A model generated the notes under the pieces. That model saw nothing but the letters and a program-made list of their open reading frames with translations, was not told where the DNA came from and did not search any database. A stretch of DNA of 62,367 nucleotides, counting the filler, from Globobulimina sp. (Eukaryota), in NCBI GenBank assembly GCA_003354225.1. It is 32 parts of 32 records of this genome, joined end to end, with 100 filler letters (N's around TTAATTAATTAA, not from the genome) between each part and the next. Parts side by side here need not be neighbours in the genome. Positions count along the whole stretch, not along the records: positions 17,578 to 19,430 come from PIVH01011218.1; 31 more parts are not named here. One strand, written 5' to 3'. This document shows, in pieces, positions 13,672 through 62,367 of this stretch. The position numbers and the translations under genes are program-made. The first letter of the stretch is position 1, and the number at the start of each line of letters is the position of its first letter.

Positions 13672-15000
13672 GCCATCACAACAAAGATAATATGACATAT
13701 TTTTAGCATTCTTTTTTTTATTTTTTTTACAGCCTAAATATATTTCATCATTCCAATTCTTTGGTAAATTCTCTTTATCGCCAACAATATACATTTCTTC
13801 ATCCCATTTATTCTCTGACTCAGCCAACATTAAATAAATCGCACCTTCTTTTGCTGAGCCACAACACGGATAACGATATACTTTGGACATTGAACCCTTA
13901 GTTTTTGAAACCCAAACTTCTTCGCATTCTTTAGGATGATACATTTCATAATGTAATGTTTTTGAATGATATGTTTCCACTCCCAACGCGTGGAAATACC
14001 GCGTTGAGCTGCTTCGTTCCATCGGTGCGGACCTCGTTTTATTCATTGCAGGCACCTTTCCATCAATATTTAATATCAATTTAACTGATTCTCGCGATCG
14101 CGCAGGAATAGAATGTGATTTATAACTACTGTTTCTATGTTGTAACTTATCGAGTTGTCGTATACATTGTGAGTCTGAATGTAATTGTAAATATTTATGC
14201 TGTTTTTGTAACAATTCGATACATTCAGTTTGCTTTTTTAGTTGTTTCTGAAACTTTAATTCTTTCTTCGTACTCTCAATGGAATATGATATCTTCCACT
14301 CATTAAACTCTTTGTTCATACAACTTATTGAATTTTTTAACTTTATAGTTTCGTATTTTAACGCACTTATTTCTTGATTTTCTTCTTGTAATAACTGACT
14401 GTTGTTTTTATGCATTACTTTTTCATGTAATAATGTTATATGTTTGATAATATTAAGTTTATTATGTTGTAAAATATCATTTTCAATGCATAATGTTTCA
14501 CAAATATTGCAGGTGATTTTTTTATTAAAGGTACATGACTTCAAATGTGAGGATAATTTGCATAACTTTCCAATCCAATCGCATCCAGTACAGCCTTCAA
14601 TATCTGGAGTCGTTGTGACTTGCTTGTTATTGCAATATACCAACAAAGAATTTATTTGTTTGCGTATATTGCGTGCTATGTTATAAGTTATGTCCAAATG
14701 TTTGGGATTTATTGGACATTGATTGTTATTCTTGGATAAATATAGTGATAAACATGATTCGCAATATAACACATCATGGCTGTTTCCGTCGTCGCAGGAC
14801 ACTGACTCGTTTTCATCATATTCATCACCACATTGTAATTCAACTGGATTTTTACATATCTGTTTGCAAATAGCGCATTGATATTGCAACGCGTTGCTTT
14901 TGTGTTTGAATATATCAACGTTGTATCCTTTTGGACATTCTTCCTGACGTTTTATTAATTTTATTATTTCTTTCTGTTCTTCTTTGCTTTCTGTTGCCAT
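13672..15000 (-). CDS. RING + TRAF-type zinc finger + coiled-coil protein, 3' partial
   Basis: CAICKQIC..PVELQC...YCESC...CPI, GCDWIGKL...HL..C, a coiled coil, and a C-terminal YHP...CC...GC zinc motif. Confidence 0.8.
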
Positions 15001-15062
15001 TATTGTTGTGTTGTACAAGCTTTTTAATCTTCCACACTGCAGTGCACCCTCTCACAGTAAAC

Positions 15063-17477: not shown

Positions 17478-18053
17478 NNNNNNNNNNNNNNNNNNNNNNN
17501 NNNNNNNNNNNNNNNNNNNNNTTAATTAATTAANNNNNNNNNNNNNNNNNNNNNNNNNNNNNNNNNNNNNNNNNNNNGAATGGTTACAAGTTGTTGAAAA
17601 TCGACCACATAAATGTAGTCTTTTTGATGATATAAATCGAAATATTTGGGAAAGCGAAATATAAGCGGAATATAAGAGCAAGCCCTTTGGTTAAGCATCA
17701 AAACTCCAGCTACAAACAAAAACACGTTTATTTGGAATCTCTATTGCATCAAATTTGGTTTTTTGGCTCTCTCTCATAATTGGGAGTTAATTTTTAATTT
17801 TTAAAAGTAAGAGAAATAAGATTGATAGAGGAATAAACAAATAGCGAAAATATACTGCTGTATTTTATCCAGTATTTAGTTGAGATCCAAATGAAAACTA
17901 AAGTTTGATTTTAAAATCAAAAATACTATTTTTCTGTTTCAAAATAACCATTTTGTGGTTTAAAAACTGTGATATAGAAATCAAATGGCAGAAATGCAGC
18001 ATAAGGTACCTACGTTTCTGAAAGGTTTGTTGACCTGTTTATTTTTCAGTACC

Positions 18054-18168
18054 CCAGAGAAAACTACTGACACACAATAATGTAGTCTGTCTAGTGTTTG
18101 TATTTGGCGCCTTCCAGAGAAAACTACTGACACACGTGTAGTCGTCTAGTGTTTGTTTTTGGCGCCTT
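18054..18168 (+). repeat. Two tandem 60/55-nt structured direct repeats
   Basis: CCAGAGAAAACTACTGACACAC..TGTAGTC(T)GTCTAGTGTTTGTWTTTGGCGCCTT at 18054-18113 and 18114-18168. Confidence 0.9.
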
Positions 18169-18445
18169 AGCTTTAGGCGCCAAACTTTCTCTTGTTATTT
18201 GGGAAACCAAAAACCATCTGGCCGCCAGCTGCCCATCTGTGAACACAAAGGTTAAAGAAAGGATACCTTTCCTTTCCCTTGCCATTTGAGCCTGTTCTTT
18301 AGGCCAAATGGTTGTATGGGAGCTCAACGTCTCCCTCTAACATACATACAACAGCAAATTATCTTGCAGTCACAAAACGGACAGTATAAACTTTTGGTTT
18401 ATTACTGTATTTAATATAGCTTACAGCTACTTTATAGAAGCTTAT

Positions 18446-18591
18446 ATCTGGGAGCCGACACATACGTCATTAGCCCCATGATAGAAGAGTCATTATTATG
18501 AACTCGATGAAGCTTATCTCTGGGAGCCGACACATACGTCATTAGCCCCATGAGCTCTGGGAGCCGGCACATACGCCATTAGCCCCACGAG
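18446..18591 (+). repeat. Three 37-nt hairpin repeats with compensatory substitutions
   Basis: Copies at 18446-18482, 18518-18554 and 18555-18591. Consensus MTCTGGGAGCCGRCACATACGYCATTAGCCCCAYGAK. Confidence 0.92.
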
Positions 18592-18806
18592 ATTGTTTGC
18601 AACATAGTCATATTGACTACATTCTTATGTGACTGAAAAGTTGGGTTTATTTAGCCCATGGGCATAGTTGAATTAATTAACCTCTGGGAGGAAACAGAGA
18701 TTACTATATAAAATTTGAATAAAATAAAAGGGAGTCGCAAGGACCTCTATGTAGTATGCAACTGTAAATGGAAAATAATAGAAATGTCTCTGGTCATATT
18801 AGCGCT

Positions 18807-18844
18807 GCACCTGAAGATGCCCTTCTGGGCGAAACCGGTCGTGC
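18807..18844 (+). ncRNA. Minimal type I hammerhead ribozyme
   Basis: Stem I GCAC/GTGC; core CTGAAGA(T); stem II GCCC-TTCT-GGGC; GAAAC; palindromic minimal stem III ACCGGT; GTC cleavage triplet ending at 18840. Confidence 0.88.
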
Positions 18845-19530
18845 TTTAAATCCTACGATTGGTGCTAATTTTTCTGGAGACTAGACTATTAATTAGTGCA
18901 CTTTGTAAGAGACACCCAAAATTGAGTTGGGTTTTGTGAAACATCAAGCTTATAATTTTGGTTAAAAACCATAGACGATGGAATGTAGAGGGTCAAGTTT
19001 AATCAGTTGGTCCCCTGCCGTGCCCTGGCACTACATATTTACATTGACTTTTTGCGGGAGTGATCATTTGTCACCTGCGGAGGCTTTTAGCCAAAGTAGA
19101 TGGATGGTTTGACTAGGCTCGCTGTACCTTGTGTTTGTTGATTATGCCACATGAGAAATTAATGAGCATTTCTCTTCTTGTTCGCTTTGATGCAGAAAAG
19201 TAACCAGGGCAAAAATAAGGAGCATTTTATTGCTAAAAATTGAATTGATTGGTAAAATTTGCACAACGAAAAATAAGCTACATAAATGGGTTTTCGAAAA
19301 TGTTTTCTGTCGATTCATAAAATAGGACAAATTAGTCCAAGAAGAAAAATAGTACTAAATGTATTTTTGAATTGGTTTTCTTGTGATTTATAAAATCGGC
19401 CAAAATGGGCAAAGGAGAAAAAATCATTTTNNNNNNNNNNNNNNNNNNNNNNNNNNNNNNNNNNNNNNNNNNNNTTAATTAATTAANNNNNNNNNNNNNN
19501 NNNNNNNNNNNNNNNNNNNNNNNNNNNNNN

Positions 19531-23436: not shown

Positions 23437-25288
23437 TTTACGAAAACAGTGTGGGATTTGGAAAAAATGTCGGCCCAAAACATAGAAAAATACCAAAATG
23501 ATTTAGATATTAAGTTCAAATCAATGAAAATGGTGACTGATAACGTTAAATCAATGGAGGTAAAGCCAATTAAGTACATATCGACAATCATGAAACACAC
23601 AAAAAAGTTAATAATAAATTCAGCGCAATATCACTTTGGAAAAATAACAAAGCGCGTTGGCCAAGTCTTGGTATTAAATGATGAAATAAAAAAAGTGATT
23701 GATGACACTCGTAAATATCGAAAAAAATACAAATCTGTCCTTAAATATGTGCAAAAAATCAAAAAAAAATGGTATCAAAAGCGGCGAAACGTCACTAGAA
23801 AATGTCCGAAATCATTTATTATTGACAAAATTGGTCATAATCGATGGCATATATTTCAAACTTGGAAAAAAATGGACAGATTAAAAAGCCGTAAAGTCCG
23901 AAGAATTCATCGTAAATTAAAGAAAAAACAAGATCTGAAAACGATAAATGAATATAAATCCAAATCATGGTATGAATTGGTTAAGAAATTAGATGGAAAT
24001 AATAATAAAAATAATGATCGATCAATTGGTAAATTAATTAAATTGTCAGTTGCTATTAAAAAATTGACAAAAGATCAAGATGCAAATTTAAAATATGATG
24101 ATTTTATTTACGATGATAAGCAAAAAGCGAATGAAATATCAAAATTTATGAACACAATCGGTCATAAATCCAATCCATTGCATGACAAAAAAGTAAAAAG
24201 ATCGAGAAAAAGGGCCCGTGAACTCGACGCGCCGTATGATTTCCAACCAAAATTATGGTCAGATTTGGATGAAAACGACCTTACAAACAATCAAAAGAAT
24301 GAAATTGCTGAATGGAAATTGGCATCATCTAAATTGGTTGAACCGTTTACGAGATCCGAGCTGCATTTTGCATTAAAAAAAGGTAATCCAAATAAAGCAT
24401 TTCATGGCGATATACATTTGCTATTATTGGTACATGCAGAGAAGCAAATTGCTGATATGTTATTAGTGGTTTTTGATTGGTGGAAGGATAATGGAATAAT
24501 CACAAATAATATGAATGAGCGCCTCATGAATCCACTCATTAAAGGTGGTAAAGACAAGAGATTGATTGGTTCCCTCCGACCCCTCGAATACGGAGTTATT
24601 ATATTCAAAGTATACACCATTATGGTATTTAACCGTATTGCTACCTACGCTGAAAAATATAAATTATTGACGGTGCATCAGTTTGCATCAAAAATAGCGT
24701 CCGGTTCGGAGGATTGTTTGGTTGATATGATAACGGACATTGATGAGATGGTTTGTAAAGGATTTCCAACAGTATTAACGTCAAACGATTCAAGCAGCGC
24801 TTATAATGCCATGCATCCGACGATAATTGAAGACAAAATGAGACATCATTGTGGTTTTAACGATGCTGCGATTACTATGTTTCAATCGTTTACAAGCAAC
24901 GTATGGTCGAAATGCAAAGTAAATAATCAAATATCCGATACATTTAAGCCGCGAAATTCATTATTTTCTCAAGGCTTTATACCCGCGGGATTCTCGTGGT
25001 GTGTTTATATAAATCCTGGCGTCATGCATTTGGATCAAAATTATATATTATATGATACAAATAATGGCAACCAATTAGCAAAGATCCAGCCAAAGGTATT
25101 AATGGATGACGTTAATTTTTATATTAAATTACATAAAAACAGTAATCGGTTAAAGTTGAATGAGGATTTTGATGAATATAATAAAGTTATAATGTATGAT
25201 AAAATATCGATAAATAAGTTTATTAAATTGCAGCCAAATAGAAAGTATATGCAAATATTATCGAAAATGTACCCGATGATGCAAAAAG
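23437..25288 (+). mobile_element. Highly divergent non-LTR-type reverse transcriptase ORF, partial at both ends
   Basis: RT subdomains in the correct order: PFTRSEL..AL...NKA, PLIKGGKD...LRPL, HQF, NDSSSAYN, SQG...VYIN, LMDD. No stops in 617 codons. Confidence 0.8.
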
Positions 25289-25679: not shown

Positions 25680-27032
25680 TTAATAGCTACGAAGTAAATG
25701 TAACAATTTTTTTCTTGATTTATAATTTTTCAATCCAGTCCACCCTCCAACTCCCGCACCCATCTTACATCCGATATTCCTCCCTCTTAAATACTTGATG
25801 ATGTATGGTACAATTGTTTCCATTGTATGTCGTGTATTCTTATGATTGCCCACAATCCTCTCACCAAGTCGCGTAATTACATCACTGCACGATTCATTGG
25901 CCAATATTTTATTCAATTTCTGCATCTTTGCTTTTCTTGCAATTTGCCTTTTTTTTTGGTTGGCTTTATCTCTTTGAGTGATCAATATAGAGACTGGAAA
26001 CAACACTTTTTTAATTTCGTGCCAAGGCTTAGCTGTATATCCGATCATTATCAATGGTTTGTAACTATCATTTTGATACAAATGCGTGATATTATACTCC
26101 GGAAATAAGCTCTCAACCAAAATATACTCCAAATAGTAAGGTATTGCAGAGATCTTTGGCATAAAATGGCCGGAAGCTGTGTCCAAAATCATTGTATATC
26201 GCTTGTATTTATAGTCATAAATATAATAACATTCGCCGCTCCACAATACGTGATTATGCACACCGTTTAACAACAAATGTTTGGTGTAATCGTGTTGATG
26301 CACTCCGTTAATTTCTCCAATTCTGAATTCAAGCGACCTCAACGAGCCTGATTTAGCCACACTCACTGTGTACGCAAACAATTTCGGAGAACGATATCTT
26401 GTCTGATTCAGATTGGGTACTGCACCATGGCCATTATCATAATTATAATAGCTCAAATCATAAAACATGAGAGACTCATTTGCGTTTACATCGATATTAA
26501 TATATGGCGTATCATAATGAATAAAGTCGAAGAAATTAGTTGTGTACTTATCATTTTCTTGTTTGCTCTCATTACATTTTCTTGTTTTCAAATAGGAGTC
26601 ACTATGAAACTCATTATAATATAAATTATACAATCTGCGCATTTCCAGTTTGGAAGGAGAAGTTTTATTGTTGTGCCATTTGGCGATATTTTGTAATAAA
26701 TCGTGTTGAATCATCGCTGTATAGTTTGCAATTTGTTGTTGTGACAGATGGCGAAGCAATATTGTACCAATTGCTATATTATAAACGTAAAATGAATAAC
26801 CAGTTTCATTTATGTGTTTGCGATAATAAGTTGTCGGATATTGATTGCCATTGCATTGTTGATCGACATTAAATACAGATTTGAGGAATGCGTCTCCATT
26901 CATACTGTTAAATATCAAGCATTCTGCTAAAATATATATGATCAATTCGGCAATAAACAGCAACGCAAACAACTGTGCACGCTTTTTAAAAACTGCAATA
27001 CAATGCAGCAGGTTGCATTTGTGCCTTGACAT
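25680..27032 (-). CDS. Type II membrane protein with a TKH...SGE...DTASGHFMP domain of unknown function
   Basis: Long ORF with an N-terminal TM helix and a conserved-looking His/SGE/SGH motif set. Confidence 0.6.
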   Translation of the reverse strand: MSRHKCNLLHCIAVFKKRAQLFALLFIAELIIYILAECLIFNSMNGDAFLKSVFNVDQQCNGNQYPTTYYRKHINETGYSFYVYNIAIGTILLRHLSQQQIANYTAMIQHDLLQNIAKWHNNKTSPSKLEMRRLYNLYYNEFHSDSYLKTRKCNESKQENDKYTTNFFDFIHYDTPYINIDVNANESLMFYDLSYYNYDNGHGAVPNLNQTRYRSPKLFAYTVSVAKSGSLRSLEFRIGEINGVHQHDYTKHLLLNGVHNHVLWSGECYYIYDYKYKRYTMILDTASGHFMPKISAIPYYLEYILVESLFPEYNITHLYQNDSYKPLIMIGYTAKPWHEIKKVLFPVSILITQRDKANQKKRQIARKAKMQKLNKILANESCSDVITRLGERIVGNHKNTRHTMETIVPYIIKYLRGRNIGCKMGAGVGGWTGLKNYKSRKKLLHLLRSY

Positions 27033-27340
27033 CGTAATAGAAAATGGTTTAATGGAATTCGTAAAAAAAAAACTTTTCCTACTTTTTTTTTGTGAAACCC
27101 AAAAAAAGTATTTCGGTGAGTAATGCAAGGATGTTGTAGCAACTGTTACAGTACTGATGAGTGCTAAAGAGCATCAGGTTTTCAGCGTCAGATTTTTCTT
27201 GTTTCTGAGACACGAAGGCAAACCTATATTATTTTTCCCTNNNNNNNNNNNNNNNNNNNNNNNNNNNNNNNNNNNNNNNNNNNNTTAATTAATTAANNNN
27301 NNNNNNNNNNNNNNNNNNNNNNNNNNNNNNNNNNNNNNNN

Positions 27341-37000: not shown

Positions 37001-37293
37001 NNNNNNNNNNNNNNNNNNNNNNNNNNNNNNNNNNNNNNNNNNNNTTAATTAATTAANNNNNNNNNNNNNNNNNNNNNNNNNNNNNNNNNNNNNNNNNNNN
37101 ATTTTGCGGTGTAATAATTTCAAAATCCCAGATTCATACTGGTTTTCTATAGTTTGTAGAGCTGCGTCTTTCTTACCTAACATAGCATGCAGCGAGTTAT
37201 TCGTGAAAGCCATTTTGTTTATGATATAGTTTGACTGAAAAAACTTTTTTTACACTTGATATTTTTAAGATTTTTTACACGTATGCATGCGCA

Positions 37294-38952
37294 ATGTCAT
37301 TCTTTTCGAAACAAGCATTCCATGACGATGATGATTCTGATATCGATTGTGAATTAACCAACGATAATACCTGGGATGACGACACTGACATTAATATCTG
37401 TCAACCAGTGTCAGTATCAAATAACGATTTAAATATCATCAAAAAAGAGACCTTCATCAACAAATCATCCAATAACAATTCCAACCACAATGTACCATCC
37501 ATGCAATCGGACCATACCAACCCAATCAAAAAAGAAGACAATTTCCAACACGCTCCACCAACCATACCTTCACAACAAAATGACACTGACAATAAAACCT
37601 CATACAATTTGATCCATGATAACCTGGATAAAGACACTGATGACGACATACTATTTGACAGTGACTCTGATGAGGAACCCATTGCTTTTTTCAATAAAAG
37701 CACCGCAGTTAAACCCATTGAGTCAAACCCAAGCATAGCAGTTAAAGTTGAACCCATTGAGTTACGCAATAAAGCCGCTGCAGTTAAAACTGAGCCCATT
37801 GCGCTTTGCAATACAAACATTGCAGTAAAAGCTGAAGCCATTATACCGGCAACAAAAACAAAAGGAAGCATCCTGGCACCAAATACACACAAAATGAAGC
37901 AACGGAGGCAAACTAAAATTAAGCTCCCAGTCAAACTGCAAAAAAAAGAAACATTGCAATTTGTTATACCACCAAACCAACACTTAAAAGCACAACATAA
38001 TAAAAACAAAAATAAATACCGAAGCAAGAAATATCGGAATAACAATAGGCGTAAAGCAGTGGGCATGAATTGGAAGACAAAAGCAGGCGTTTTATCGACT
38101 AAAGTGAACAATAAACAATGTCCAATATCGCACCCTCGCTCTGAGCTAACTATCCAAGAAAGAACGAAATATGTTGCATTGAGACACAAACTGTTGATTA
38201 AGAAAGAAGTATTAACACAGGTTGAGAGTATCCAATATAATGAGTTACAAACAAGGCTTAGCGATGAACAAAATGTGTTTAAAAAGTGGATGTTTGCGTT
38301 TTATAAAGGAAAAGATGAGAAATATTGTGATGATGAGGAATTAATAAACTTTGCACAACAAAACCAAGCAGAATTTAGAAACTATAAAATGAATTTAAAC
38401 GAATTGGTCAAACGTTCAAAGTTTAATCACTTGGCATATTATTATATTAACCACCATACATTGCTGCATATTCAACGGATTATAAACACAAAAAAAAAGA
38501 ATTTATTCAATAATTTTGCAGATAAATATATTGTACAAGAATGTGGTCAACAAATGGGTGAAATTTGTGGGCGAAATGTTGGTGAAAAGGAAGCATTGAT
38601 ATCCTTTGAGTTTTTAGCAAATTTGAATGAAAATAATGGTCAAATACCACAATGGAAGATACCACGAAAATATTTTAATCGGACATATAATGATCAGATA
38701 GCAATGGATATATTACCATCAATGCTGAATGTATATGGAGAAGAAAAGGAAAAGGATCGGAATGATATGACAAAACATATTCGCTATAAAGAAGCAGTAA
38801 ATGTATCAAAGGATGATATAATTGGCGATATTTTATTAAATAATCCAAATTCAAAGGATATAAATGTTGTAATATCAGATCATGTGATGAGTTTATTGAT
38901 TGATACTGATCAAAACAATAAATGGAGCAAAAGTTTTATGATTCCGTTTGTA
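37294..38952 (+). CDS. Nuclear protein, possibly ICE2/NARG2-like, 3' partial
   Basis: Acidic N-terminus with repeated VKxE/IKKE SUMO-consensus sites. The C-terminal VSKD...VVIS...LLID...W...IP pattern recalls ICE2, by eye only. Confidence 0.45.
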
Positions 38953-52815: not shown

Positions 52816-54563
52816 ATGTCGAACACATGGTACAGTGCATTTTTTTTGAGTTACTTTATTTTGTCACATAAAAAAGGAATAATGCTGTCCTGTGAAGCTG
52901 TTTTAAGTCGAAAGAATGCATTTTATCCAATTTATGATAAAATCATTATCCCAACAATAGTAAATTGCTTACGTATCATGTCCATCGTGGCATTATTTTA
53001 TTTGAAATTTGAGAAATGTGTAACAGCAATCTTTATTCGTTTTGTTTTTTTGTGTCTCAATCTTTATGGCTTTTATCAAGGTTTAATAGAAGCAAAAATT
53101 ATGGACCAAATCAAAGACAAAAAATGGGATCGTATTATTTTAGCATCCACAGCAATATTATTTGAGCCATTATTACCGAGCATATTTTTGATTGTCGTTC
53201 GGTATTATAATAAAAAAGAAATTATATCATCGCAATATATCCAAATCCCAAACGAGAATGAGGACAATATTGACACTGAGACGCCGCGCATAGAATTACT
53301 CGTTCCATCGACTGACTTTATTGACGAATCTGAGTTATTTGAAATTGACAGCAAGAATAAATTAAATAATTGCATTGAATGGATGAATGAGAAAATATTA
53401 ATGTTCAACACGGATATTGATAATGAGGTATTTTTTTGGATGGTTTCCTGCCAATTTGAGTTTGTGGCACATTTAGTATTTTGTTGTTATTATACCTCAG
53501 TTGACTGGAAATATGGTTTTATTTATCTGGATAAGACCTTATTTGTTAACGACCATATATTATCATTACGTATTTTACCTTTGATCTATGTCATTGTTGC
53601 GGTGCTGTTTTCAATCAAGGTGTTATTTTATTGGATTGCCGATATGTTTCGAAATTGTTACCACGTTCAAAGAATGTTATTATTATTACCCACTGAATAC
53701 TTATTATATGTATTAACGATATTATTTGATATATTTTCTTCATTTGCGCTGTATTCATTTTATGCGCAACATCGATTTAATTCATATTGGAATTATCATT
53801 ATTTTCCTGTTTATATTTCACATGTAATGATATTATATTTGTTATTTTATTGGCTGTGCCTTCACGGACCATTTGTTTTGTGGTATAACCGAATGGATCT
53901 TATTCATCATTTGAAGAATCACACTTTGATGTTTTGTTTGCTCTCTGTTTTAATTATATTGATGACTCTGTTATGTGCCTGGCTGTTATATTGGATATTA
54001 TTTGGTGTTTGGTTTAGTTTATTTTCATTTTTCCTCATTATGTTAGCAAATCAATACACAATGAACATCAATCATAGTGATCATGACTCATTCCGTGCGA
54101 TGTGGACAACATTTTGTAATTTTATATTGAATTCGAAATCATCCAAAGACGAATTATATCGAATTATGTCACTCAAATCGACACTTCATAGTTGTGGATT
54201 GGTCAAAAATGATGAATTATATAATAAATTTGTCCATTTCACTGACAATGAGTGGCTTGTTTGTGATCGTAAAAAAACTATAAAAAATATACAAAGTTTG
54301 AGTGGTGAAAAACTGTCAAATACACAGCGATTAAAAGAAGCAGTATATCCAATTTGTAATGATATGAGAAATGGAATATATTCATTACAATTGGATTTTG
54401 GTAATGTTGTATTTTATGGAGAGTGTGCACTTATTGTTATATTTTTAATTCTTTTGTCCGTGATCATTTTATCAAAGATGTCGATTTTACCGTATTTATT
54501 ACTGGAATGGATGTGGAATATTCAATTATTCGGTGTGCTGGATTATATTTTATTTTGTATTTG
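52816..54563 (+). CDS. Hypothetical multi-pass membrane protein, partial
   Basis: ~580 open codons with many TM helices. Confidence 0.6.
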
Positions 54564-60516: not shown

Positions 60517-62336
60517 GAATCCTTAGGTTTCTTCAACCAATCCGGACCATGCCACCAGAAAGATAAATCTGTTAATTCTTTCATATCCATACCTCTGCTA
60601 GGTAAATCAGCCAGATTATCAGTTGTAGCAACATACCGAAATGTGCATCGTCCCTTGTTGGCTTTAATGTGTTGTAACCGTCGTTCAACAAACACCGATA
60701 AAGACTTTTTGCTAGTCAGCCAATGTAAGACGGCCTTTGAGTCCGTCCAAAGTGTCACTGCCGAAATAGGTAAATGGAGGTGTTTCTCGACAAACTTGAG
60801 ACAGTTAATGCCAATGAACATTCCCAATAATTCCAGTCTGGGAATACTGACGTCCTTTTGAGGGGCTAATCTCGTTTTGGAAAAAACCAAATCCATTCGC
60901 ACTTCCTCCGGAGTTGTTTGACGTAAGTAAATCACCATGGCATAACTTTTCCCGGAAGCATCACAGAAACACAGTAATTCATACTCTGGTTTCCCTTTTT
61001 GAAAACCAATATAACGTGGAATTTGATGGTCTGGAATAGCCTGCAAACACACAGCTATTTCTTTCCACTTTGCCGTTAGTTCCTCGTCAAATTTCATATC
61101 CCAATCCATTTGTCGTGCCCACAATTCCTGCACGAACAGTTTAGCCTTCACAAGTACAGGCGAGAAATATCCCAATGGATCATAAATGGAGGGAATGGCT
61201 TTGAATACTTGACGTTTAGTGTTGGCACACATCATTTGTGCTGCGTCAGGACCCGGAATAGTTAACAGATCATCTGTTATATCCCATTTGATTCCTAACA
61301 CCTTTGTGGATTTAGTGACGATTTTGTCATCATCGGGAATATTCTTCATAACAGTTTCAGATGATGATGCCCATTCACGCAAATTCATAGAAGCTTTGGC
61401 AAAAATTTCCTTAGCCTCTTTTCGAAATTGTATTGCATCTTCTTCAGAATCAACTCCAGTGACCAGATTGTCTACATACAAATCCATCATAATTTGCCTA
61501 GCAATGTCACTGTCTATCTGACTTAAATGATACAAAATTGTTTGAGCCAGCAAAGTTGGGCTGGATCTCGTTCCGAATGGCATCATAATATATCTGTACT
61601 TTTGAATATTCCGTTCCACATGCTTTTTTGTGATATCTTTCAACCACAAGAAACGAATGGCATCTCTATCATCTTCGGTCAAACGAATCTGCAGAAAAGC
61701 TCCTTCTATATCTGCAATTAATGGAATTTTATGTAAACGAAACCGCATCAACATTCCACAGAGATCCTCCAACAATATGGGTCCTCTATACAAACAATCA
61801 TTCAGACTATTGTTCGTTTTCTTAGTTTTAGCTGATGCATCGAATACAATACGAAGTTTCGTTGTACTTTTAGATGGAGTTATGACCGGATGATGAGGTA
61901 TGTAATGTTTATGGGGACCTTCCTTTGTGTCCTCCAACACCTTTTCAATAATCCCATTCTTTTCTTGTTCCGCAAACTTAGCAGTATATTTTTGGAACAA
62001 TTCCGGATCTTTTTCAAATCTTGGCAGAAGAGACCGCAAGCGTCCTACTGACAAGGCATAATTATCCGGTAAATTAGGATTTTCAACATCTTTCCAAGGC
62101 CACGATACTTCATATCGGCCATCGACAAATTTAACCGTTTTGTTGAAATGCTCAATAGCTTTGTCGTCATCTGAATCATGAGGAGATTCTTTGATACCAA
62201 TAGTTTCCAAATCCCAAAACTGAGTGAGATTGGGTTCATACAACAAAGATTTATCTGGGGAAGTGAGCATTGATACTTCCGTCTGCAAAGCAACAGGCTC
62301 CAGACAAGTGGACATGACAAACATGCTTGGTTCCAC
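60517..62336 (-). mobile_element. BEL/Pao LTR retrotransposon pol (RT + RNase H), partial
   Basis: FWDLE.IGI, YIPHHPV, KLRIVFDAS, SLNDCL..GP, ADIEGAFLQI, YVDN, YDPLG, FCDAS, IPRLEL, WTDS, NLAD..SRG, WWHGP. Confidence 0.96.
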
Positions 62337-62367
62337 CTTTTTACATGCATTTTCATTTTCAACTCTT

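Follow-up and report, generated by a model that had tools for sequence, protein, structure and literature searches.

The question raised by contig PIVH01011218.1 of the Globobulimina sp. assembly GCA_003354225.1 is what kind of element combines a hammerhead ribozyme motif and a series of hairpins with DNA in which no credible protein-coding gene can be recognized. The contig is found at 17578–19430 of the window, which is the whole stretch of DNA analyzed here and comprises 62,367 bases in 32 separate contigs, each 1851–1853 bp long, joined by runs of N and a TTAATTAATTAA linker. Because the contigs were joined artificially, neighbors in the window say nothing about linkage. A first-pass annotation had proposed a long, densely structured non-coding element carrying a ribozyme at 17850–19420, either retrozyme-like or a retroelement RNA. 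We interpret the contig, with moderate confidence, as a decayed or non-autonomous copy of a multi-copy, hammerhead-bearing retroelement family of a eukaryote that resembles Penelope-like elements (PLEs). The part of a PLE that the repeat most resembles is the non-coding pseudo-long terminal repeat (pseudo-LTR) or untranslated region (UTR) up to just past the start of the open reading frame (ORF). The contig, the hammerhead and the repeat body in which it is embedded are located as follows.

17578–19430, no strand assigned: whole contig of the finding, 1853 bp, with N spacers on both sides.
17779–18941, + strand: repeat body common to the contig and a related metagenome locus (L001), defined by alignment.
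18786–18882, + strand: hammerhead domain, with an outer stem GUCUCUGG/CUGGAGAC plus UUAGCG/UGCUAA in the minimum-free-energy fold.
18807–18844, + strand: type I hammerhead motif, with the cut predicted after C18840.

The hammerhead motif reads CUGAAGA(U)GCCC-UUCU-GGGC-GAA-A...U-C at 18811–18840. Helix I consists of 4 bp (GCAC/GUGC) and is followed by the core CUGAAGA and an extra U; helix II (GCCC-UUCU-GGGC) has 4 bp and a 4-nt loop and is followed by GAA; and helix III is a perfect palindrome, ACCGGU, at 18834–18839. Every core position of a hammerhead is occupied by the expected base, namely C3 U4 G5 A6 N7 G8 A9, G12 A13 A14, the A15.1-U16.1 pair and H17. The window was searched with a descriptor of our own, written after the motif had been seen, that consisted of the core, helices I and II of at least 3 bp, a helix III of at least 2 bp and an optional extra base. 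The descriptor matched this site alone in the 32 contigs on both strands, and 200 shuffles of the window yielded a mean of 0.02 matches, which is a generous estimate given that the descriptor is post hoc.

Cervera and de la Pena reported four properties that emerged in PLE hammerheads outside their search descriptor (PMC4209133). Three of these four are present in the motif: a base between positions 9 and 10.1 (U18818), a G10.1-C11.1 pair (G18819-C18830) and a palindromic 15.2-16.2/loop 3, although these hallmarks are not fully independent, as our descriptor permitted the additional base and set a minimum of 2 bp for helix III. The fourth is the occurrence of consensus families within a genome that are rich in compensatory changes (PMC4209133). 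According to folding, helix III with its two-base loop cannot close in the monomer. Two 38-nt copies gave a double hammerhead at −30.1 kcal/mol in which helix III is intermolecular and has 6 bp, compared with 2 × −13.3 kcal/mol for alternative monomers. The folding model predicts that the hammerhead is competent for cleavage only as a dimer. The minimal hammerhead of the type known from Penelope-like elements that had been annotated here is supported by this minimal, dimeric type of motif and its PLE hallmarks; the motif stands at 18807–18844 on the + strand, but its score stays below the Rfam standard, the gathering threshold of a hammerhead family (clan CL00010).

The contig has no credible ORF. 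The longest ORF with an ATG, GTG or TTG start encoded 67 aa, stop-to-stop frames reached at most 72 aa, with the 72-aa frame extending into the Ns, and no Pfam family was detected at E ≤ 0.01 in any of the six longer frames tested. In neither the window copy nor L001 did an ORF lie upstream of the hammerhead. The reverse transcriptase (RT) ORF that defines a PLE (telomerase-like, with or without GIY-YIG) is absent from this 1.85-kb contig, which does not exclude its presence in the genome, but as long as no RT is linked to it, the repeat cannot be classed as a PLE.

The repeat is present in multiple copies. In blastn, the contig gave only chance matches of 18–38 nt to the other 31 contigs of the window. 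Among public sequencing runs, only run X1 matched the stretch (0.77 of the sampled words), and no RNA run was among the matches. X1, which is possibly the source itself and thus not independent support, contained 41 contig pieces of the repeat, of which 16 showed at least 99% identity, 7 showed 95–99%, 12 showed 90–95% and 6 showed less than 90%. Runs X2 and X3 from the same sample contained no matching pieces. The X1 pieces form a family of diverged copies in which the hammerhead segment is best represented. The depth in X1, given as summed contig depth and not as copy number, was 4.8 at 17578–17825, 57–77 at 18446–18569, 109 at 18818–18879 and 24–28 at 18880–19065. This climb toward the hammerhead and the fall after 18880 fit 5′ truncation, as far as summed contig depths can indicate. 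Such truncation is a trait of PLEs, as are pseudo-LTRs that arise by partial tandem insertion and a tail of 30–40 bp. Joints in X1 contigs skip 69, 84, 89 and 150 nt, that is, module-sized insertions or deletions between copies, and the loose ends at 18271, 18773, 18783 and 18881 were interpreted as the same sequence in a more diverged form.

Pattern searches identified one further copy. The exact hammerhead pattern had no locus in metagenome, viral and genome contig collections; the hairpin-module pattern described below had one locus among metagenome contigs (L001, on PJEL010002097.1) and none in prokaryote genomes. L001 comprises bases 1–1127 of the 18,828-bp record, to which the comparison is confined, and carries the element on the reverse strand. 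According to the source publication, the PJEL accession comprises the contigs that stayed unassigned in a metagenome linked to the benthic foraminifer Globobulimina (PMC6783311). When aligned with 17779–18941, L001 matched at 978 of 1103 aligned bases, an identity of 89%; the alignment has 143 gap columns. The left limit of this shared body is set by the end of the L001 DNA, and the right limit, 101 nt past the cut, is a true loss of homology. The last 44 nt of L001, which are AT-rich, have no other alignment on the contig, and their local score falls in the range of shuffles. Together with the X1 pieces, this copy bears out the repeated, retroelement-like nature suggested by the first-pass annotation, as the sequence is not a unique locus.

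The hammerhead is conserved between these copies. Within the 97 nt of the hammerhead domain, L001 differs by two substitutions and two one-base insertions or deletions, all of which fall in loops or outside helices. The core is unchanged, and the domain is approximately 97% conserved compared with 89% overall. Among 40 of the 48 X1 difference rows, no change lay inside 18807–18844.

Upstream of the hammerhead, three copies of a hairpin module were identified.

18446–18482, + strand: hairpin module copy 1, 37 nt with 12 bp and an AC-rich loop.
18518–18554, + strand: hairpin module copy 2, from repeat search and fold.
18555–18591, + strand: hairpin module copy 3, abutting copy 2, with an A-U to G-C compensatory change.

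The modules are spaced by 72 and 37 nt. None of their 111 positions was changed in L001, compared with approximately 11% change elsewhere. When the three paralogous modules were aligned with one another, all 12 pairs were kept in 36 of 36 cells, and two pairs changed on both sides (A-U vs C-G at the base and A-U vs G-C in the inner stem). Slid pairings, used as a control, were 25–53% paired and contained no double changes. Four of the five variable columns make up the two compensated pairs, for which the chance probability is approximately 0.005. These Watson-Crick changes are uninformative on the strand. A reading of the modules as coding sequence was dropped, given that copies 2 and 3 are offset by 37 nt, which is not a multiple of 3. 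In the module region, Rfam returned only an astrovirus frameshift-element look-alike (15.5 bits vs 70), which was dropped as a chance match caused by a GGCGCC hairpin. The modules are most likely RNA-level elements of the retroelement RNA that would serve in protein binding or template recognition.

A start codon lies within the hammerhead and is followed by a frame.

18817–18849, + strand: AUG made up of A9, the inserted U and G10.1 (18817–18819), followed by 10 codons and TAA, by frame reading.
18911–18941, + strand: AC-rich stretch with a 6-bp stem ACCCAA/UUGGGU, the last segment shared with L001.

If the A of this AUG is counted as base 1, the predicted cut comes after base 24. In L001, the AUG in the hammerhead opens a frame of 54 codons (L001:3–164, − strand) that runs off the end of the contig and measures 93 aa from stop to stop; 3% of shuffles stay open equally long. 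Relative to this frame, the window copy has two one-base insertions and TAG for TAT. Pfam detected nothing in the 93-aa L001 frame, and tblastn of the frame against the window contigs returned only the contig at 17578–19430 itself. HMMER gave 10 hits at E ≤ 0.001 among 1.84 billion representatives, and these were repeat proteins and were read as spurious; the hits listed match in 4–24 stretches each, and the three that were scanned carry DUF6533, MBG and WD40 repeats. The AC-rich stretch begins approximately 95 nt after the AUG, and the homology ends 125 nt after it. In PAc, a Poseidon PLE of the anole Anolis carolinensis, the order is hammerhead core, AUG where stem II begins and ORF (PMC11167929). 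Reverse transcription of PAc starts in an AC-rich stem-loop 111–118 nt into the ORF, the ends of the genomic copies are determined by this start point, and cutting by the ribozyme requires the protein (PMC11167929).

Folding of the contig was compared with 200 dinucleotide shuffles for each of 17 windows of 150 nt, with the contig's own flanks as the only controls. On the + strand, z ≤ −2 was obtained in 8 of 17 windows, namely 17850 (z −2.07), five windows at 18050–18450 (z −2.27 to −3.29), 18750 (z −2.70) and 18950 (z −2.19). The other nine + strand windows, which include all of 19050–19399, resembled shuffles (z −1.43 to +0.38). On the − strand, z ≤ −2 was obtained in 4 of 17 windows, all inside 18050–18499. 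This profile shows that a core of approximately 550 nt and the hammerhead domain are unusually foldable and that the 3′ third (19050–19399) is not. The dense structure that had been described over 17850–19420 is thus borne out in part, at 18050–18600, 18750–18899 and 18950–19099, and not along all 1.5 kb. Every stem-loop on which that description relied was recovered in the sequence at its position as a predicted fold, and both of its duplicated module families are real (55–60 nt in two copies at 18054–18168 and 37–45 nt in three copies at 18437–18590), as is the lack of a credible ORF. The other elements of the repeat body and its 3′ flank are as follows.

18054–18168, + strand: tandem duplication of a 55–60-nt module, an imperfect hairpin (TRF period 55, 2.0 copies, 88% matches).
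18158–18184, + strand: perfect 10-bp hairpin TTTGGCGCCT/AGGCGCCAAA, from sequence and fold.
18282–18311, + strand: hairpin CCATTTG-GCCT/AGGC-CAAATGG, from sequence and fold.
18311–18352, + strand: nested hairpin GTTGTATG/CATACAAC around GGGAG/CTCCC, from sequence and fold.
18381–18408, + strand: hairpin ACAGTA-TAAAC/GTTTA-TACTGT, from fold.
19268–19422, + strand: degenerate AT-rich tandem units of approximately 76 nt (74% identity over 82 nt, 19268–19349 vs 19344–19422).

The 55-nt unit is single in other copies, both in L001 and in one X1 contig with a joint from 18074 to 18144. In L001, the hairpin at 18158–18184 is kept save for its outermost pair, and the sole change in the hairpin at 18282–18311 lies in the loop. 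The hairpin at 18381–18408 has lost one pair in L001, and another has changed from C-G to U.G (18382 C>T). A second change of this kind, 18803 C>T in four X1 contigs and L001, also converts C-G to U.G; both U.G pairs can form on the + strand only and thus hint at this strand. The loop of the hairpin at 18381–18408 is UUCG closed by C-G in L001. A UUCG loop closed by C-G is a stable tetraloop. The AT-rich units at 19268–19422 show no excess folding (z −0.54 and +0.06), and a weaker echo of them was observed at the 5′ end of the contig (17597–17680, 19 nt at 79%). A DNA transposon or miniature inverted-repeat transposable element was considered and dropped, as the terminal inverted repeats amounted to merely two weak pairs of 16–17 nt at 81–88%.

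A mechanism can be proposed for a PLE-like element of this kind. The element would be transcribed from the + strand, and two copies would pair through the ACCGGU palindrome, leading to cleavage after C18840. As the literature on related elements suggests, such a dimer would need either tandem copies within one transcript or a pair of transcripts, and help from a protein is probable, as in PAc. In intact copies, the AUG of A9, U and G10.1 may open the ORF of the element, a lead that comes from L001 alone. This ORF is destroyed in the window copy and the downstream sequence differs, so that this copy would be dead or riding on proteins supplied in trans. The upstream 37-nt modules, the best-conserved part of the repeat, would most likely serve protein binding or template recognition.

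Several observations weigh against this interpretation. Neither an RT nor a GIY-YIG ORF was detected by Pfam on the contig or elsewhere in the window among 24 long ORFs, and the sole RT of the window is of the Pao/BEL type (contig 60517–62367), not of the PLE type. No longer protein matched the L001 ORF at E ≤ 10 in a word-indexed search. A second hammerhead, including the U3-A8 core variant, was not found on either strand of the contig or of L001, and no dimer partner is visible. (One sequence resembling a hammerhead, CUGAAAA...GAAA at 18015–18049 on the − strand, has a C3/A8 mismatch and was rejected.) Helix II has 4 bp, the canonical size of metazoan type I hammerheads, and not the 6–8 bp of the minimal hammerheads of metazoan PLEs, and helix III is long in the PLE hammerheads described so far from protists and fungi, so that a dimer-type motif would be atypical if the host is a protist (both from PMC4209133). 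Several hairpins were not kept in L001, where 18250–18275 is deleted, the outer stem of 18311–18352 is broken and the hairpin at 18605–18619 (TAGTCA/TGACTA) is weakened; moreover, the hairpin at 18601–18623 pairs better on the − strand. For the modules, the shuffle control is weak with three sequences, as 49 of 500 shuffles reach the observed value, and their identity between the window copy and L001 could reflect gene conversion. The remaining adverse points concern the hammerhead itself and bear on the alternative considered next.

It is possible, but in our view unlikely, that the hammerhead is a chance or non-functional motif in an ordinary interspersed repeat, a satellite-like sequence or a multi-copy intron or UTR, where the hairpins would be the short palindromes and duplications typical of such sequences. 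Rfam found nothing at gathering thresholds on the whole contig and no hammerhead family at E ≤ 10, and nothing at E ≤ 1 on L001. Even when the search was confined to the 111 nt at 18780–18890, Hammerhead_HH9 (RF02275) scored 10.4 bits against a gathering threshold of 52 (E = 6.1), and its alignment at 18807–18844 is the same structure as that read by eye. As the descriptor was post hoc, 0.02 chance matches per window is not negligible over very many windows. The helices are identical in the two full copies, the window copy and L001, so that covariation evidence is nil and nothing tests the stems. Furthermore, when the 97-nt domain is folded, its minimum-free-energy structure contains a 10-bp stem, ACCGGUCGUG/UACGAUUGGU, which buries the cut site. 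This stem (18834–18876) competes with hammerhead helices I and III and is equally conserved; L001 retains it, its loop there having one base fewer. The stem could act as a conformational switch or could be the actual reason for the conservation of the segment. The perfect palindromes also fold on both strands. Against a chance origin, the extra base between positions 9 and 10.1, the G10.1-C11.1 pair and the perfect 6-nt palindromic helix III were not demanded in full by the descriptor. The motif also lies in the segment of highest summed depth and is approximately 97% conserved in L001, for which the overall identity is 89%, and the AUG in stem II follows the layout of PAc.

A second alternative, which we regard as still less likely, is a long autonomous structured non-coding RNA, that is, a giant retrozyme or ribozyme-bearing mobile RNA that would be processed by the hammerhead and perhaps circularized. 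The functional unit would then be the body of hairpin modules and hammerhead, with no ORF of its own; this corresponds to the bolder reading of the first-pass annotation, a self-cleaving RNA of over 1 kb. It would agree with the lack of an ORF upstream of the hammerhead in either copy, with folding above shuffles over approximately 550 nt and the hammerhead domain, and with hairpin modules that are strongly conserved with compensatory changes. The lack of an Rfam match, also for short stretches, is compatible with it, and non-autonomous PLE relatives are known in animals and Chlamydomonas (PMC7229834; PMC8557442; 2026 preprint). However, the 1.85 kb contain a single hammerhead and lack a tandem unit, so that self-excision of a unit cannot be drawn on the available DNA, and the known animal units measure 170–400 nt (PMC7229834). 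Half of the 1.5 kb folds no better than shuffles, several hairpins are not conserved in L001, and the open frame of L001 begins in the hammerhead.

It is very unlikely that the contig represents the 5′ portion of an autonomous element truncated at the contig end or through misassembly, with the ORF downstream and the repeats collapsed in a short-read assembly. In favor of this reading, PLE tandem and inverted structures are said to break short-read assemblies (PMC8557442), the X1 contigs here are short (129–474 nt) with many branch points, and the frame of L001 extends past the end of its record. Against it, two frameshifts and a stop separate the window copy from L001 in the first 25 codons, approximately 490 nt follow the homology break at 18941 without an open frame in the window copy, and the continuation of the window type past 18941 recurs in another X1 contig with one mismatch.

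The host of the PLE-like element was considered from its source. Other contigs of the window carry eukaryotic genes in long uninterrupted frames, for which the Pfam scan identified a TLC nucleotide transporter, MINDY, an SH2-domain protein, an Ariadne E3 ligase, an actin-family protein, RhoGEF and DUF155. The TLC-family ATP/ADP transporter (310–1779, − strand; Pfam 3.9e-59) lies on a eukaryote-like contig, and its best relatives are unnamed proteins 62–79% identical, one of them in the protist set EukProt. Frames of 449–613 aa without a Pfam family at E ≤ 0.001 were also observed, for example at 13672–15018, 23449–25288, 25680–27128, 37231–38952 and 52816–54563, which suggests a poorly sampled, fast-evolving eukaryotic lineage. 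The contig at 60517–62367 (− strand) encodes a Pao/BEL-type polyprotein fragment (Peptidase_A17 2.8e-49; RVT_1 3.2e-10). The Pao/BEL group is usually regarded as restricted to animals, and the fragment is either a sign of animal DNA in the assembly or evidence of an unusual BEL/Pao host. The host of the hammerhead-bearing element is probably not an animal, on the basis of one related record in the unassigned fraction of a foraminifer-associated metagenome, and the owner of the element may instead be an associated animal rather than a protist.

Hammerheads in PLE-derived animal repeats are well described, with dimer-type motifs being the norm, and possible new points are the host lineage and the conserved hairpin array. 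A literature search found no hammerheads in foraminifera; the two terms met only in a review of the RNA virosphere, in which each was used once. A bolder formulation, which we consider improbable as a whole, is that a rhizarian, either the foraminifer or a co-living eukaryote, harbors a family of non-coding retrozyme-like elements of more than 1.1 kb that combine a metazoan-style dimer hammerhead with covarying 37-nt hairpins, the hairpin array being a new recognition module for a PLE-type RT and the family the first hammerhead-bearing retroelement in Foraminifera. If the attribution is true, the range of dimer-type PLE hammerheads is no longer limited to animals and includes a lineage in which repeats have hardly been studied. 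The three conserved, covarying hairpins are also a candidate for the RNA features, still not known, that PLE proteins recognize. If the contig is merely a dead PLE fragment, the finding is routine repeat annotation.

Compared with known hammerhead-bearing elements, the repeat shares with the 3′ ends of the endonuclease (EN)-less PLEs Athena/Terminon and Coprina a hammerhead near the 3′ end of the unit (PMC8557442). It contains one ACACCC word approximately 70 nt downstream of the cut, which, unlike in Athena/Terminon and Coprina, is not repeated, and there is no reverse-complement telomeric run (PMC8557442). Like the plant LTR retrozymes (PMC4918200), it appears non-autonomous, is non-coding and hammerhead-bearing and is approximately 1 kb long. 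Those elements are characterized by two LTRs that bear type III hammerheads and by a primer binding site and polypurine tract (PMC4918200), none of which is seen here; the repeat has a single type I motif, and no long direct repeats were found on the contig.

Animal non-LTR retrozymes are tandem 170–400-bp monomers, each with a type I hammerhead (PMC7229834), and their proposed origin is from the pseudo-LTRs of PLEs (PMC7229834; Li et al. 2026 preprint). Like them, the repeat is non-coding and AT-rich, and its hammerhead is of type I, helix III being weak, palindromic and dependent on dimers (PMC7229834; Li et al. 2026 preprint). It differs from them in that the 1853 bp of the contig contain a single hammerhead, the shared body measures at least 1160 bp and a tandem monomer is missing, as the tandem repeats on the contig have periods of 7, 11, 37 and 55 nt only. 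The term retrozyme-like in the first-pass annotation is therefore not supported in its defined sense, given one hammerhead core, no tandem 170–400-bp monomer and no LTR pair. Its remark that the architecture was not recognizable also overstates the novelty, as the PAc layout (PMC11167929) and the PLE hallmarks (PMC4209133) have been published.

The closest parallels are found among the PLEs. The contig shows neither an RT-EN ORF nor a second flanking repeat that could serve as a pseudo-LTR partner, which sets it apart from PLE hammerhead elements. It agrees with PLE hammerheads, as described in PMC4209133, in its type I architecture, short helix I (4 bp) and dimer-only palindromic helix III, and in the occurrence of mostly single motifs in truncated copies within non-coding repeat sequence. 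With regard to PAc, the ORF of the window copy is broken after 10 codons and that of L001 is known for 54 codons without a recognizable domain, unlike in PAc. The likeness is one of layout rather than demonstrated homology. In this layout, the repeat appears to correspond to PAc in both respects: the hammerhead lies at the junction of pseudo-LTR and ORF, and an AC-rich stem lies approximately 100–120 nt into the ORF, where the copies end.

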